NCBI GenBank assembly: GCA_016840465.1
Contig: JAEOSH010000001.1
Location: 89,263-109,262 of the forward strand
Length of the DNA stretch: 20,000 bases
DNA from: Candidatus Baldrarchaeum yapensis
GTDB lineage: Archaea; Asgardarchaeota; Baldrarchaeia; Baldrarchaeales; Baldrarchaeaceae
Direction of reading: 5' to 3'
The position numbers were made by a program, and so were the translations under genes. Under the pieces are notes generated by a model, which worked only from the letters and a program-made list of their open reading frames with translations, had not been told where the DNA came from and ran no database searches. Positions 8,368-17,856 of the stretch are shown here, one piece after another (positions within the stretch are counted from its first letter, which is position 1; every line of letters begins with the position of its first letter).

Positions 8368-8527
8368 GGTGCAACGCCGCGTGAGAGTTAAGCCTCCGCA
8401 CGTTCCCGGGAGTACTGTCCTCCGCGAGGGGACGGGAAACCGGGAAGCTGCTCACCCACATGGGTGGGCGGCCATAGTGCGGAGGGCAACACCCGTTCCC
8501 ATTCCGACCACGGAACGGCGTTGCACC
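8368..8527 (+). rRNA. Circularly permuted 5S rRNA precursor; predicted mature circle is 8386-8514 (129 nt)
   Basis: The canonical 3' part (GTTAAGCCTCCGCACGTTCCCGGGAGTACTGTCCTCCGCGAGGGGACGGGAAACCGGGAAGCTGCTCACCC, 8387-8457) comes before the canonical 5' part (GGGTGGGCGGCCATAGTGCGGAGGGCAACACCCGTTCCCATTCCGACCACGGAA, 8462-8515). Helix I 8447-8457/8462-8472, helix II 8477-8485/8393-8401 (9 bp perfect), helix III CCGT/ACGG, helix IV GTCCTC/GGGGAC with GCGA-type loop, helix V TTCCCGG/CCGGGAA. Terminal stem 8368-8379/8516-8527. Confidence 0.93.
8380..8515 (+). promoter_or_regulatory. Bulge-helix-bulge splicing motif pairing the two ends of the permuted 5S transcript
   Basis: Outer stem GGTGCAACGCCG/CGGCGTTGCACC; central 4-bp helix CGTG (8380-8383)/CACG (8509-8512); 3-nt bulges AGA (8384-8386) and GAA (8513-8515); inner pairs GTT (8387-8389)/GAC (8506-8508). 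Predicted cuts are after 8385 and after 8514. Confidence 0.88.
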
Positions 8528-8540
8528 GCTCCTTCTAATA

Positions 8541-8549
8541 CTTTATAAG
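8541..8549 (+). promoter_or_regulatory. TATA box for downstream DUF1512-like gene
   Basis: CTTTATAAG, upstream of the CDS starting at 8601. Confidence 0.5.
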
Positions 8550-8600
8550 TGGTGTCGGATACAAGTAATAACCATGAGCGATGATAAGATGCCGTAGAGG

Positions 8601-9773: not shown

Positions 9774-10163
9774 ATGAAAAGATCTTTAATGTCATTGTCG
9801 ATTATGCTCCTCATGTTAGTGGTCTTCTCTGTTATAATATATTTACTTCTTAACTTTGTGGCCACAATGCAAGAGTCTTCGATTTCTCTGTTTATGATGA
9901 TTTTTACGATCCTTATTATTTACTTGATCCTTTTACCAGTAATATCTCAGTTCGCTAGAATGTATAGAGTGGCAAAAATGAGGCAGATTATGCCTTCTCT
10001 GCTGTCGGTGATAAAATGTCAAGATTGCAATTATGTTCTCGTTAGGGAATTTTTAACGGGAGATTATGTGTTTAAGAACGTCGGAAAATGTTATAAGTGC
10101 GGCGGTAATCTCTACATAGACGCAATATACTTAACATCCGAAAAGAAAGGAAAGGGTGCATAA
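9774..10163 (+). CDS. Small membrane protein with C-terminal zinc ribbon, unknown function
   Basis: Two hydrophobic segments, then CQDCNYVLVREFL...GKCYKCGGNLY (CxxC...CxxC). Confidence 0.65.
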   Translation: MKRSLMSLSIMLLMLVVFSVIIYLLLNFVATMQESSISLFMMIFTILIIYLILLPVISQFARMYRVAKMRQIMPSLLSVIKCQDCNYVLVREFLTGDYVFKNVGKCYKCGGNLYIDAIYLTSEKKGKGA

Positions 10164-10844: not shown

Positions 10845-11343
10845 GTTCAAACTCAAAAAAGTCGGAGTTGCGGGCACGTTTGATAAACTGCATAAGGGTC
10901 ACAAACTTTTACTTTTAACGGCATTTTCTGCAGGAGAAAGAGTAATAATAGGTATTACTTCCGAGAAGTTGATAAAGGGCAAGAAAATGTGCCAAAAGAT
11001 AGCCCCATTTGACGAGAGAGTTAAAAAGGTAAAGGAATTTCTCTCAAGCCGAGGCTTTAAGGATTATAATATAATTAAATTAGACGATCCTTATGGTCCC
11101 GCAATTAATGATCCCTCGATGGACGGATTAGTTGTAACTAGGGAAACCTTAAACAACGCACTCGCTATTAACAAGATTAGAATAAAACAGGGAATGAAAC
11201 CACTTACCTTAATAGTGGTTCCATTGGTACTTGCCGAGGATGGACTTCCAATATCCTCTACTCGTATAAGACTAGGAGAAATAGATGAGAACGGAAAATT
11301 GAAGACGTATTCAGGAGGTTTATGTCGCAATCGAAAGGTGTGA
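10837..11343 (+). CDS. coaD: Phosphopantetheine adenylyltransferase, archaeal type
   Basis: GVAGTFDKLHKGHKLLLLTAF (HxGH-type nucleotidyltransferase), GLVVTRETLNNALAINKIR, ISSTRIRLGEI. Confidence 0.9.
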   Translation: MDEFKLKKVGVAGTFDKLHKGHKLLLLTAFSAGERVIIGITSEKLIKGKKMCQKIAPFDERVKKVKEFLSSRGFKDYNIIKLDDPYGPAINDPSMDGLVVTRETLNNALAINKIRIKQGMKPLTLIVVPLVLAEDGLPISSTRIRLGEIDENGKLKTYSGGLCRNRKV

Positions 11344-11353
11344 GAAGGACTAC

Positions 11354-11360
11354 CTTTTTA
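11354..11360 (+). promoter_or_regulatory. Candidate TATA box for the H/ACA locus
   Basis: T-rich CTTTTTAT-like element about 26-30 nt before 11386, where the GC-rich structured RNA begins. Confidence 0.35.
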
Positions 11361-11385
11361 TTCCGTGTGGAATAATAAGTAATAA

Positions 11386-11496
11386 GCACCCCGCCGCGAA
11401 ATCCGTGCTTGATGGGCTCCCGCACTTTTGAGGCGCGGTGCGTCACCGCATACCGATGAGTGCGGAGTCAACCCAGGCACGGGACAGGCGGGGTGC
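11386..11496 (+). ncRNA. H/ACA-type guide RNA module 1
   Basis: Outer helix GCACCCCGCC (11386-11395)/GGCGGGGTGC (11487-11496). Lower stem TCCGTGC (11402-11408)/GCACGGG (11477-11483) is followed directly by ACA (11484-11486). Pocket TTGATGGG/TCAACCCAG; upper stem CTCC(C)GCAC/GTGCGGAG; GCGGTG CGT CACCGC apical hairpin. Exactly 16 nt lie between the upper stem and ACA. Confidence 0.65.
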
Positions 11497-11497
11497 A

Positions 11498-11602
11498 GGG
11501 GTGGGTGCAGTAAGGGCCCACTACAAGAGAGCCCAGTGGAGAGCGGCGTATGCCGCCCAGTGACACTGGGTGTTAGTCATGTGGGCCACATGCACCCACC
11601 CC
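11498..11602 (+). ncRNA. H/ACA-type guide RNA module 2 with kink-turn
   Basis: Outer helix GGGGTGGGTGCA (11498-11509)/TGCACCCACCCC (11591-11602). Lower stem GGCCCAC (11515-11521)/GTGGGCC (11581-11587) is followed directly by ACA (11588-11590). Pocket TACAAGAGA/GTTAGTCAT; upper stem GCCCAGTG (11531-11538)/CACTGGGT (11564-11571). K-turn with tandem GA (11539-11540)/GA (11562-11563) and AGT 3-nt loop; apical stem GCGGC GTAT GCCGC. Pocket-to-ACA spacing is 16 nt. Confidence 0.75.
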
Positions 11603-14828: not shown

Positions 14829-15725
14829 TTACTCCTTACTTACCATTTTTGATATCAGTTCCCACTGCCTATCGACCCATCTCTGTATTTCCTCTATATC
14901 CTCTCTCGTTAAGTGAGAAAATCTTCCCTGCAGCTTTAGGTACTCCTCGACAGGTAGCCTTTTTTCTGGATCCAGCAACGCCTTGCTGGGACCTGTTAAA
15001 CGGAATTTTCCGTCCTCAACTTCATATAGTACCCACATTCCAGTTCTCACCGCCAATCGTGATATTTTCACTGTTAATTTGGAATCAAATCTCCAACCTG
15101 GGGGGCATGGGGCAAGTATATGTATGTATCTGGTCGCGCCACGTTTTTCTTTCGCTTTTTTCACTTTTCTGAAAAGGTCATGCGGGTATCCACTTGTCGC
15201 CGTGGCGACATACGGTATATCATGAGCGATCATTATTCTTGGCATGTTCTTTTTGTGTTCACGCTTGCCGAGAATAGGAGTTGTTGTTGTTATAGCTCCG
15301 TACGGGGTTGCTCCACTTCGCTGGATGCCAGTGTTCATATATGCTTCATTGTCATAACATATGTAAATGAAATCTGTTTGCCTTTCGGCGGCTCCGGATA
15401 GAGCCTGAATGCCTATATCAACAGTACCCCCGTCACCCGCCCATACAAGAACCGTTGCGTCCTTACCTCTCGCCTTCAAGGCAGCAACTATACCTGATGC
15501 TGCCGCTGCTGCAGCAGCAAACGCTATATTTAGAACGGGGATTCCTATTGCGCTCTTAGGATAGAGTCCCATGAAAACGGACGTGCAACACGCTGGAACC
15601 ACCATTATGCTCTTCTTTCCTAGGGCTTTTAACACCCACCTAAGCGCCATTGTCGCACCACAACCGGGACAACTCGCATTACCTGGGTAAAAGTATTCTT
15701 CCAGAGGATACCTTTGTGCCGACAT
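14829..15725 (-). CDS. porB: Pyruvate/2-oxoacid:ferredoxin oxidoreductase beta subunit
   Basis: GNASCPGCGATMALRWVLKALG, WAGDGGTVDIGIQALSGAAER, CYDNEAYMNTGIQRSGATP. Confidence 0.95.
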   Translation of the reverse strand: MSAQRYPLEEYFYPGNASCPGCGATMALRWVLKALGKKSIMVVPACCTSVFMGLYPKSAIGIPVLNIAFAAAAAAASGIVAALKARGKDATVLVWAGDGGTVDIGIQALSGAAERQTDFIYICYDNEAYMNTGIQRSGATPYGAITTTTPILGKREHKKNMPRIMIAHDIPYVATATSGYPHDLFRKVKKAKEKRGATRYIHILAPCPPGWRFDSKLTVKISRLAVRTGMWVLYEVEDGKFRLTGPSKALLDPEKRLPVEEYLKLQGRFSHLTREDIEEIQRWVDRQWELISKMVSKE

Positions 15726-15727
15726 TT

Positions 15728-16930
15728 TTAATCACCCTTAAGTCCGACCCATTCACAGATGAAACCTTCTTTTTCCTCCTCAAGTGCTTTAAATGCCCTC
15801 ATAAATAATTCAGCCTGCATATCTGGAGTAACGTCTCTTCCTCCGATTCCAACTATGAAATTCATTATTAATGGAGGATTCTTTTCACCGTAGAGCGCTG
15901 CGGCAATATCTGCAGCACTTATCCCGCAGTATCCATAACTCGCATTTCTATCGACTACTACCAGCACTTTTACTCTCCTTCCGATTCTTATGAAGTCCTC
16001 ATATGGAAAGGGCCTGTAAACTCTGAGTTTTACCGACCCGACTTGGTAACCTTGTTCTCTTAACATATCAACGACGTACTTTGCTTGAGCCGCGAGCGTT
16101 CCCATGGATACCATTACGACTTCAGCATCGTTTGTTCTATATTCCTCTACTAATGCTCCATGATATCTTCCGAACATTCTCTTGAAATCATCAGCAGCCT
16201 TTTTTATTTTATCTTTAGCTTTTAGCATTCCTACCTGCATGAGATATCTATATTCCATGTATCCGACTTGTGTGCCTACGGCTTCTGCTAGAACGATGTT
16301 CCCATGAGTGACGGGATTGTCCACGTCACTGATGTCAAACGGAGGCTCATACGGAGGTAAGTACTCTTCAACTTCCTTTTCGCTTAGTACGTGAACCGGT
16401 TGGTACGTATGACTTAGAAGGAATCCATCGCCACATACCATTGCTGGCATTCTCACCTCCGGATCCTCAGCAACCCGGTACGCCTGTATTATTGTGTCAA
16501 AGAACTCTTGGTTACTTTCAACGTAGAATTGAATCCAGCCAGTGTCCCGTTGTGATAGACTATCTATATGATCCGGCCATATATTCCATGGAGGCCCCAT
16601 TGCTCTATTTATAACCGCCATAACAATAGGGAGCCTCGCCCCCGCTGCCCAGTGAAGCATCTCATGCATATAGGCAAGTCCATGCGCGGAAGTTGCTGTA
16701 AACGCACGTGCTCCTGCTGCAGACGCGCCGATACATGCTGCCATTGCGCTGTGTTCGGACTCTACTCTCACGTACTCGCACTTCATTTCTCCCCTCTCTA
16801 TAAGTTCCGCTATTTTCTCGACAATCGATGTTTGAGGTGTTATAGGGTATGCCGCAACCACCTGTACCCTTGCCGCTTTAGCAGCATAAGCTGCGCTATA
16901 ATTCCCGGTGAGTATCATCACTTCTCCCAT
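15728..16930 (-). CDS. porA: Pyruvate/2-oxoacid:ferredoxin oxidoreductase alpha subunit
   Basis: GNYSAAYAAKAARVQVVAAYPITPQTSIVEKIAELI, ESEHSAMAACIGASAAGARAFTATSAHGLAYMHEM. Confidence 0.95.
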   Translation of the reverse strand: MGEVMILTGNYSAAYAAKAARVQVVAAYPITPQTSIVEKIAELIERGEMKCEYVRVESEHSAMAACIGASAAGARAFTATSAHGLAYMHEMLHWAAGARLPIVMAVINRAMGPPWNIWPDHIDSLSQRDTGWIQFYVESNQEFFDTIIQAYRVAEDPEVRMPAMVCGDGFLLSHTYQPVHVLSEKEVEEYLPPYEPPFDISDVDNPVTHGNIVLAEAVGTQVGYMEYRYLMQVGMLKAKDKIKKAADDFKRMFGRYHGALVEEYRTNDAEVVMVSMGTLAAQAKYVVDMLREQGYQVGSVKLRVYRPFPYEDFIRIGRRVKVLVVVDRNASYGYCGISAADIAAALYGEKNPPLIMNFIVGIGGRDVTPDMQAELFMRAFKALEEEKEGFICEWVGLKGD

Positions 16931-17223
16931 TCTACTACCTCCCTCTCAACTTTTATTGCGTCATATGGGCACTCCTCAACACACACAAGACAGCCCTTGC
17001 AATAATTGTAGTTTATCCTTGGTCCTTCATCCTTCGAAAAAACTATAGCGTTCTCCGGACAATAAGTCCAACACATGCCACACTTTTTGCACTTCTCATA
17101 ATTAATGACAGGGCGTTCAGCCCTCCACCGACCCGTCATTCCCATAGATCCAGGGCCTGGCCTCGAGAGTGGTGTTGGCGGAATTTCCTTCATCCACTCA
17201 TAGTTCTTCACAACAATTTTCAA
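16918..17223 (-). CDS. porD: Pyruvate/2-oxoacid:ferredoxin oxidoreductase delta (2x[4Fe-4S] ferredoxin) subunit
   Basis: CKKCGMCWTYCPENAIVF and CKGCLVCVEECPYDAI. Confidence 0.93.
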   Translation of the reverse strand: MKIVVKNYEWMKEIPPTPLSRPGPGSMGMTGRWRAERPVINYEKCKKCGMCWTYCPENAIVFSKDEGPRINYNYCKGCLVCVEECPYDAIKVEREVVEWEK

Positions 17224-17856
17224 GGGGACATCACCACCGTCTTTTCATACGCGATACGTGCGGCCTTTGCATTAAGTTCTGCAAGTTCTCCCTCCCATTC
17301 CTTTAATATTACGGATAGCACTGATTCTATCCTGACTATCCCGGTGGCCTTGGAAAAGGCGCCCAGCATTGGTGTAATCCCCGGGTGAGGAAAACCCTCA
17401 CCCTTTGAGGACAGGAATCCCAGCAACCTTCAATCCTAGATCCAAAGCTATTTTTGTGGCGTCTACTGTCGCTATCTTGTACTTTGGGGGAATTCCCATC
17501 TCTAAAAGTTCCTCTGGTTGTTTTGATATGTTAACTACCAGCATTCCCCCATTCCTCAAGCCTTCTAACACGTTTACCATACCGAGTAATGAGGGGTCCA
17601 GTACGACAACTACATCTGGGTTGTAAATTTGGCTACGTAGGTGGATTTTTTTGGAAGATATCCGTGTAAAGGCAGTTACTGGTGCACCTCTCCGCTCCGC
17701 TCCAAAGAACGGAAATGCCTGTACATCCTTATATCCATCGATATATGCGGCCTTTGCGAGAAGTTCTGCTGCTGTTACAGCGCCCTGACCTCCTCTTCCA
17801 TGCCAGCGGACCTCTATAATCTCCACATTTGAGTTCATAAACTTATCACCTAGCAC
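17220..17856 (-). CDS. porG: Pyruvate/2-oxoacid:ferredoxin oxidoreductase gamma subunit, interrupted; proposed join complement(17220..17376,17405..17856)
   Basis: Exon 1 has VRWHGRGGQGAVTAAELLAKAA...FGAERRGAPVTAFTRI...GLKVAGIPVL. Exon 2 has TPMLGAFSKATGIVRIESV. The two lie in different frames, separated by 28 nt. The joined length is 609 nt = 203 codons. Confidence 0.87.
17377..17404 (-). other. 28-nt BHB (archaeal splicing endonuclease-type) intron in porG
   Basis: Minus strand: TGT-CCTC-AAA-GGGTGAGG-GTTTT-CCTCACCC-GGGG-ATT-ACA. Outer helix TGT/ACA, central CCTC/GGGG, bulges AAA and ATT, inner 8-bp helix. Cutting AA^A and AT^T gives GTC CTC AAT ACA CCA = VLNTP. Confidence 0.85.

Follow-up and report, generated by a model that had tools for sequence, protein, structure and literature searches.

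The gene for the gamma subunit of pyruvate:ferredoxin oxidoreductase (porG) lies on the minus strand of the window, that is, the whole 20,000-nt stretch of DNA from Candidatus Baldrarchaeia (Asgard) analysed here, and is interrupted by 28 nt at window positions 17377-17404. Is this gene dead, encoded in two pieces, translated by recoding, misassembled, or interrupted by an intron that is removed from its mRNA? The original prediction proposed the last of these, a BHB intron inside a protein-coding gene.

The porG locus

The operon has the order porG-porD-porA-porB, runs on the minus strand from 17856 down to 14829, and encodes a four-subunit 2-oxoacid:ferredoxin oxidoreductase (Table 1). At the DNA level porG consists of two fragments. 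The first (ORF 17398..17856) terminates in ...GLKVAGIPVLKG at a UGA stop, and the second (ORF 17220..17426), which lies in another frame, includes ...ITPMLGAFSKATG and contains the rest of the domain. An in-frame GTG at 17856, upstream of the ATG at 17838, provides an alternative start, and the porG stop overlaps the start of porD (UUGA). Identity to relatives is 64-72% for exon 2 and 66-69% for exon 1; exon 2 is thus conserved as well as exon 1, and there is no decay past the insert. The N-terminal 152-aa PorG fragment is recorded from 12 contigs, four of which were read here.

Table 1. Coordinates of the interrupted genes, their exons and the parts of the BHB motif.
Feature	Sequence	Position	Strand	Remarks
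porG exon 1	window	17405..17838	(-)	ATG at 17838; 3' end ...CCU GUC CUC AA; N-terminal part of Pfam POR
28-nt BHB intron (predicted), AGGGUGAGGGUUUUCCUCACCCGGGGAU	window	17377..17404	(-)	identical in L001-L004
Whole BHB motif	window	17373..17413	(-)	sole match of the refined motif within the window
Outer helix UGU/ACA	window	17411-13 / 17373-75	(-)	3 bp
Central helix CCUC/GGGG	window	17407-10 / 17379-82	(-)	4 bp, between two 3-nt bulges on opposite strands
Bulges	window	5' AAA 17404-06; 3' AUU 17376-78	(-)	
Inner hairpin GGGUGAGG-GUUUU-CCUCACCC	window	17383-17403	(-)	perfect 8-bp helix
porG exon 2	window	17220..17376	(-)	U ACA CCA AUG ... UGA
porD	window	16918-17223	(-)	intact, downstream in operon
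porA	window	15728-16930	(-)	intact, downstream in operon
porB	window	14829-15725	(-)	intact, downstream in operon
porD+porA+porB block	window	14829..17223	(-)	same operon as porG
porG site-1 intron	L005; L019; L021	2127-2159; 2142-2176; 217-250		also in L165-L181
glyA inserts	L182	3991-4019, 4688-4714, 4778-4805	(-)	29, 27 and 28 nt (introns 3, 2 and 1)
glyA inserts	L184	3875-3903, 4572-4597, 4661-4688		29, 26 and 28 nt (introns 3, 2 and 1); same three positions

Anatomy of the insert and predicted splice product

The minus-strand text across the insert is CCUGUCCUCAAAGGGUGAGGGUUUUCCUCACCCGGGGAUUACACC, which reads, in RNA-sense order, UGU CCUC AAA GGGUGAGG GUUUU CCUCACCC GGGG AUU ACA. The splicing endonuclease is reported to cleave between the second and third nucleotide of a bulge (PMC12397907), a rule which was checked on the tRNA-Thr of the porG contig (see below) and holds there. 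Removal of 17377-17404 in silico produces a 609-nt ORF from the GTG, or one of 591 nt (196 aa) from the ATG, which reads GIPVLNTPMLGA. The predicted spliced junction is CCUGUCCUCAA joined to UACACCAAUG, and the peptide spanning it is VAGIPVLNTPMLGAF. The spliced PorG matches Pfam POR (PF01558) in one stretch from position 1 to 173 of 173 (E=1.8e-43), whereas the unspliced frame meets a UGA stop two codons past the 5' cut. The 28-nt split, every coordinate and every part of the motif given in the original prediction proved correct, and its claim that cuts at AA^A and AT^T leave an uninterrupted 609-nt ORF with conserved PorG sequence was reproduced, with a full-length Pfam POR match.

The cut also restores a single residue. 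When 28-nt deletions were tried in this register and next to it, AAU was recreated by one alone, the deletion that follows from the canonical BHB cuts AA^A and AU^U; a shift of one or two bases puts Ile or Lys in place of Asn. The codon at the junction is that of Asn145, a residue present in all 120 sequences aligned, with no gap in the alignment at that point (GIPVLNTPMLGAF vs GIPVLNTPILGAF in the nearest relatives). A search of the window (3 mismatches allowed) and of 181 loci found no further copies of the GGGUGAGG..CCUCACCC hairpin beyond the porG copies, so the DNA searched does not contain it as a palindromic repeat.

Folding and chance expectation

In the predicted minimum-energy fold the 5' bulge, the 4-bp helix and the 8-bp hairpin all form. 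The fold lengthens the central helix by a U-A and a G.U pair, to 6 bp, and does not form the 3-bp outer helix and the closed 3' bulge. The canonical BHB form lies approximately 5 kcal/mol above the minimum for 60 nt at 37 C (-19.0 vs -24.3, a difference partly contributed by small unrelated hairpins) and is approximately 1.5 kcal/mol costlier than the minimum at 75 C. Because folding prefers the longer central helix over the 3-bp outer helix, the motif is best regarded as a BHB whose outer helix is weak. The description of the motif as a complete hBHBh' thus stands for its parts, all of which are in place, but "complete" was generous for an outer helix of 3 bp that is absent from the minimum-energy fold. 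Endonucleases of the L1-loop (alpha-beta)2 type accept relaxed motifs (PMC5829648).

By themselves, BHB-like motifs are frequent. Under a loose hBHBh' definition the window has approximately 100 matches; in control DNA, a motif of H4 plus an h' of at least 6 bp has approximately 7 matches per 10 kb of strand and the refined BHB motif 5.6 per 100 kb, or about 2 expected per 40 kb of strand. The occurrence of the motif alone is not beyond chance. Its exact register is far beyond chance, with a probability of approximately 2.7e-6 per position and length (62 control matches in 1.11 Mb of strand x 21 lengths). With the hairpin granted, the other seven pairs still have a probability of approximately 1e-3 of falling in the correct register. 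With such a register probability, and with AAU arising only from the deletion made by the canonical cuts, the restored Asn is indeed as hard to explain by chance as had been claimed.

In stricter scans of approximately 76 kb of Baldrarchaeia DNA, motif counts equaled background after the known introns were taken out, and no further introns can therefore be claimed there. A generic BHB scan combined with ORF merging over 1.25 Mb was dropped: gene junctions and shadow ORFs produced false positives in far too great a number. One further BHB-like stretch in the window, an in-frame 57 nt with AAA/AAA bulges at 10087-10143 (+) inside a 129-aa ORF, was rejected as an intron, since a zinc ribbon has its second CxxC pair encoded there.

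The insert across assemblies and relatives

The same 28 nt are found in the window, in NCBI GCA_029856545.1 (the JGI 3300014911 contig), and in the Logan assemblies of SRR14699971 and SRR6823441. The contigs read are approximately 99.9% identical to the window and, over all of porG including the 28 nt, identical to it; at least three independent assemblies carry the insert. Since the 28 nt are identical in contigs from different runs and samples, a sequencing or assembly error is excluded, which the original prediction had thought unlikely on other grounds. No sequence variants of the window's intron occur among the copies read, and the insert is fixed in the population.

Relatives at 60-65% identity seen in searches do not have the window's insert. 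A metagenome scan with PorG alignment gave no split porG among the matches listed, all of which were at 63% identity or less. The comparison of porG in related genomes that had been proposed as a check on the intron shows the window's site to be empty in the relatives seen, and it shows sister Baldrarchaeia to be interrupted at another site.

A second porG site in sister Baldrarchaeia

A genome-collection scan returned 80 porG loci, none of them from the window's own species; in three of the loci porG is interrupted. Two of the three carry the label Baldrarchaeota, and the third is given as "Odinarchaeota AUK032". This last contig (JAGGSW010000062.1, titled "Candidatus Odinarchaeota archaeon AUK032") encodes a PorG 96% identical to that of the Baldrarchaeota MAG locus L005 and harbors the same intron; its Odinarchaeota label is probably outdated. 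PorG of the sister lineage is 62-68% identical to that of the window, and PorA is 69% identical between the two lineages. The window's insert is missing from the sister genomes, as theirs is from the window. Among the best 120 database matches, all PorG entries of the sister lineage are 138-aa exon-2 fragments, and none is full-length at more than 65% identity. In the sister lineage porG is detached from porDAB, lying beyond a glycosyltransferase gene on the opposite strand.

The sister insert (site 1) is located between the invariant Glu48 and Arg49, at the border of FGAE and RRGAP in the most conserved 8-residue stretch of the family, and its predicted spliced junction is GGCGCAGAA joined to AGRCGUGGAGCC. 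Six variants were recovered from 18 contigs, with lengths of 33, 33, 34, 34, 34 and 35 nt. All variants have the central helix GCAG/CUGC and a 5' bulge of AAA; in the 3' bulge, A-N-A, the middle base is U, G or C. The 7-bp inner helix contains three compensatory double changes (GAC/GUC to AGU/ACU). Across the variants, 97% of cells are paired, a figure that falls to 26-53% on sliding the 3' partners by 1-3 columns.

The three lengths of the site-1 insert put exon 2 in all three frames, and consequently no single frameshift, read-through or bypass fits. The first exon-2 codons (RRGAP) show synonymous changes only; in two variants a stop codon precedes them and no start codon intervenes. Because RRGAP is kept even there, its codons must be linked to exon 1 in the RNA.

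Three inserts in glyA

In L182, 20 kb around a sister porG, glyA is called as two SHMT fragments, and reading of the DNA shows three BHB inserts (Table 1). Their removal by the same cut rule gives a 449-aa SHMT which matches Pfam SHMT in one stretch over positions 6-399 of 399 and aligns with the SHMT of Methanocaldococcus jannaschii (4uqv) without gaps across the three junctions (E=6e-141). The junctions fall between LIASEN and IPSPAV, between RYAE and GWPGER, and at the K of LVAG-K-AVAFAEML. A second genome, L184, encodes a spliced SHMT that is 90.4% identical to that of L182, with no gaps. The hairpin tops of the inserts differ between the two genomes, and the helix of the second insert has been rebuilt (GUCCCU/GGGGGC vs GUCCCAGU/ACUGGGAC). 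Besides porG and glyA, no other split genes were found in L182 and L184.

One plan is common to all five intron positions, H(4)-AA^A/U-[6-9 bp hairpin]-H(4)-A-N^N with a length of 26-35 nt, and the window's intron fits it.

A protein search with the C-terminal part of SHMT returned almost only fragments. This was not taken as evidence of wider splitting, because the fragments checked (L186 and L187) are cut by contig ends. A stand-alone 190-aa C-terminal SHMT piece is found in Thorarchaeota contig JBQSKZ010000235.1 (L185:2069-2641), with homology starting within a few residues of the position of the third glyA insert; upstream there is no N-terminal part, and a divergent 603-aa gene is found instead. 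This piece could belong to a split gene, be a remnant, or stem from a chimeric contig.

A tRNA intron and the splicing machinery

Approximately 5 kb beyond porG on the same contig lies a 94-nt tRNA gene (L001:5381-5474, minus strand) with an 18-nt BHB intron at 32/33, defined by the helix CCGG/CCGG and the bulges ACU and AAU. Removal of the 18 nt by the same cut rule gives a perfect 76-nt tRNA-Thr(CGU). ARAGORN had called this gene tRNA-Gly(GCC), a call replaced here by tRNA-Thr(CGU) with a BHB intron, which has a perfect cloverleaf after removal. With such a tRNA on the porG contig, the organism must own an endonuclease that handles non-canonical positions. This agrees with the report that Asgard EndA is an (alpha-beta)2-type enzyme with an L1 loop, which confers broad specificity (PMC5829648). 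Neither endA nor rtcB is found within the approximately 28 kb of this genome examined.

The neighboring 90-nt tRNA gene (L001:5283-5372, minus strand) is called Phe(GAA) by ARAGORN. Its anticodon loop, CUUCUAA, suggests Arg-UCU. An extra hairpin of approximately 12-14 nt in the D-loop region of this tRNA is probably another non-canonical intron.

Interpretation of the insert

Judged from the DNA, the 28 nt are probably (at roughly 0.85) a BHB intron within porG, carried by the porGDAB pre-mRNA of a Candidatus Baldrarchaeia archaeon; its removal would depend on the splicing endonuclease. Upon transcription, CCUC of the exon would pair with GGGG of the intron, with the bulges AAA and AUU flanking the helix and the 8-bp intron hairpin inside. 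The tRNA-splicing endonuclease (EndA) would then cut after the second base of each bulge, and a ligase of the RtcB type would join ...CUCAA to UACACC..., recreating the Asn145 codon and bringing the last 51 codons into frame. The 28-nt intron would be freed, probably as a circle. Unspliced mRNA would be translated into a truncated protein, because UGA follows two codons past the cut, and a regulatory role for the intron is conceivable. The intron reading of the original prediction is supported by the sister inserts, which are 26-35 nt long and often not multiples of three, by the compensatory changes in their helices, and by the BHB intron in the tRNA gene.

The first alternative is that a hairpin-containing insertion of 28 nt inactivated porG and that its BHB-like pairing is coincidental. 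The frame is broken at the DNA level, the insert is absent from relatives at 60-65% identity seen in searches, and BHB-like motifs are not rare, all in favor of such a pseudogene. However, chance would have had to hit the exact register (approximately 3e-6, and approximately 1e-3 for the other seven pairs even with the hairpin granted) in a gene whose exon 2 is as conserved as exon 1 and whose partners porD, porA and porB are intact. The insert would also have become fixed in several samples, and the analogous sister inserts have been kept, with compensatory changes, in species whose protein sequences are 4-20% apart. Inactivation is accordingly an improbable account of this locus.

A second alternative holds that porG is a split gene whose products, an N-terminal PorG of 152 aa that ends in ...VLKG and a C-terminal piece whose first codon is the ATG of ...PMLGA, assemble into one subunit. 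Gene callers annotate two ORFs, and the ATG lies 9 nt past the junction with a GGGG run approximately 10 nt upstream. The invariant Asn145-Thr146, however, would be missing from both pieces. At site 1 the RRGAP codons are under purifying selection although they lie upstream of any start codon, and two variants have a stop, with no later start, ahead of RRGAP; glyA, moreover, would have to be made in four pieces. We regard assembly from separate polypeptides as very unlikely.

Translational recoding has just as little probability. In a bypass like that of T4 gene 60, the ribosome would leave at GGG, which is followed by UGA in the hairpin, and resume at the GGG 22 nt downstream; otherwise, a +1 frameshift could occur. 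The layout of take-off GGG, UGA, hairpin and landing GGG in the frame of exon 2 is compatible with such an event. The bypass product, VLKGITPMLGA, would nevertheless lose the invariant Asn and gain residues where no homologue has a gap, and a simple +1 shift would insert approximately 9 residues. The sister inserts (33, 34 and 35 nt; 26 or 27 nt) would each need a different event, and site 1 of porG has no matching take-off and landing codons.

An assembly or sequencing artefact, conceivable in that the source is a metagenome-assembled genome, has a negligible probability when SRR14699971, SRR6823441, JGI 3300014911 / GCA_029856545.1 and the window all carry the identical 28 nt.

The BHB intron of porG could also be one of many. 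One of approximately 57 neighboring genes examined is interrupted (glyA, with three introns), a count from which porG is excluded as the gene by which the loci were picked. On this basis, the odds are about even that Baldrarchaeia possess genome-wide BHB mini-introns of 26-35 nt in coding genes, with tens of genes affected per genome; the introns would share one architecture (H4-AA^A...A-N^N), lie at the most conserved codons, and result from lineage-specific gains at new sites. The expression of POR and SHMT would then depend on the tRNA-splicing machinery, and this would be the first proteome in a prokaryote to bear introns of the tRNA-splicing type, among the closest relatives of eukaryotes.

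Other features of the window

ARAGORN and Rfam scans of the window found no tRNA and no family at gathering score. A GC-rich intergenic island at 8464-8563 (+) (58% vs 42% background) has a full-length match to Rfam 5S rRNA at 25.7 vs 38 bits gathering; it is probably a 5S rRNA gene, divergent and stand-alone. Another island rich in GC (64%), at 11327-11595 (+), has matches below gathering score to H/ACA-type archaeal sRNAs (HgcG/Pab40, 28 bits) and, at 11520-11579, to Pyrobac-1 (36 bits, also below gathering score). It probably represents a multi-hairpin H/ACA guide RNA upstream of a TYW2-like gene.

Significance and comparison with known systems

BHB splicing of coding sequence is indicated here in Asgard archaea for two central metabolic genes and five positions, with variable lengths and compensatory changes. 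The PorG and SHMT database entries of these lineages seen in searches are all fragments. If splicing is confirmed, the fragments or pseudogenes that gene callers report for such genes are mis-annotations, and metabolic reconstructions from Asgard MAGs are affected. Confirmation would also mean that the tRNA-splicing endonuclease regularly matures mRNA in the lineage nearest to eukaryotes, with a bearing on the origin of RtcB-type mRNA splicing (XBP1/HAC1) and on intron tolerance. The gain and mobility of BHB introns would become directly testable, because the sites differ between sister lineages and each lies at an invariant motif.

Introns in archaeal coding genes are very rare, as the original prediction had stated: the literature searched gives cbf5 of Crenarchaeota alone, first reported in 2002. 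No report of BHB or mRNA introns in Asgard archaea or Baldrarchaeia was found in it. The cbf5 introns (Desulfurococcales/Sulfolobales; Watanabe 2002, Yokobori 2009) are 16-44 nt long (PMC2738675), and cbf5 was still named as the only coding-sequence BHB case in 2020 (PMC7714728). Like the 28-nt intron of porG, those of cbf5 are short and BHB-like, interrupt an ORF, and often have a length that is not a multiple of three; they depend on a hetero-oligomeric tRNA-splicing endonuclease, as the porG intron presumably does, and both show lineage-specific gain and loss. The hosts differ, cbf5 being the gene for a pseudouridine synthase in Crenarchaeota and porG that for a subunit of a metabolic oxidoreductase in an Asgard archaeon. 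Unlike cbf5, the Baldrarchaeia have at least five intron positions in two genes, with up to three per gene. The porG intron would work like the cbf5 intron and is not its orthologue.

The motif and cut rule of the porG intron are the same as those of archaeal tRNA and rRNA BHB introns, including those at non-canonical positions such as 32/33 of tRNA-Thr(CGU). Unlike in those introns, the substrate is the coding region of an mRNA, the exon side of the motif is under codon constraint, and its outer helix is weak. An mRNA substrate, here a predicted one, is also the common point with HVO_1309 of Haloferax volcanii, the mRNA of which contains a BHB intron in its 5' UTR that is processed by EndA at the BHB sites (PMC7714728). 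The HVO_1309 intron, unlike that of porG, lies in an untranslated leader and leaves the reading frame uninterrupted.

The coding gap of T4 gene 60 opens, as in porG, with a Gly codon followed by a stop in a hairpin. Unlike in gene 60, take-off and landing at the GGG codons of porG would not give the conserved protein, and the sister introns exclude a common bypass. In eukaryotes, a short non-spliceosomal intron (26 nt in XBP1) of HAC1/XBP1 mRNA is removed by Ire1, a protein endonuclease that cuts at RNA structures, and a tRNA ligase or RtcB rejoins the exons, with a change of reading frame. The porG intron would resemble this system in its working; the endonuclease and the motif differ, and no homology is implied.
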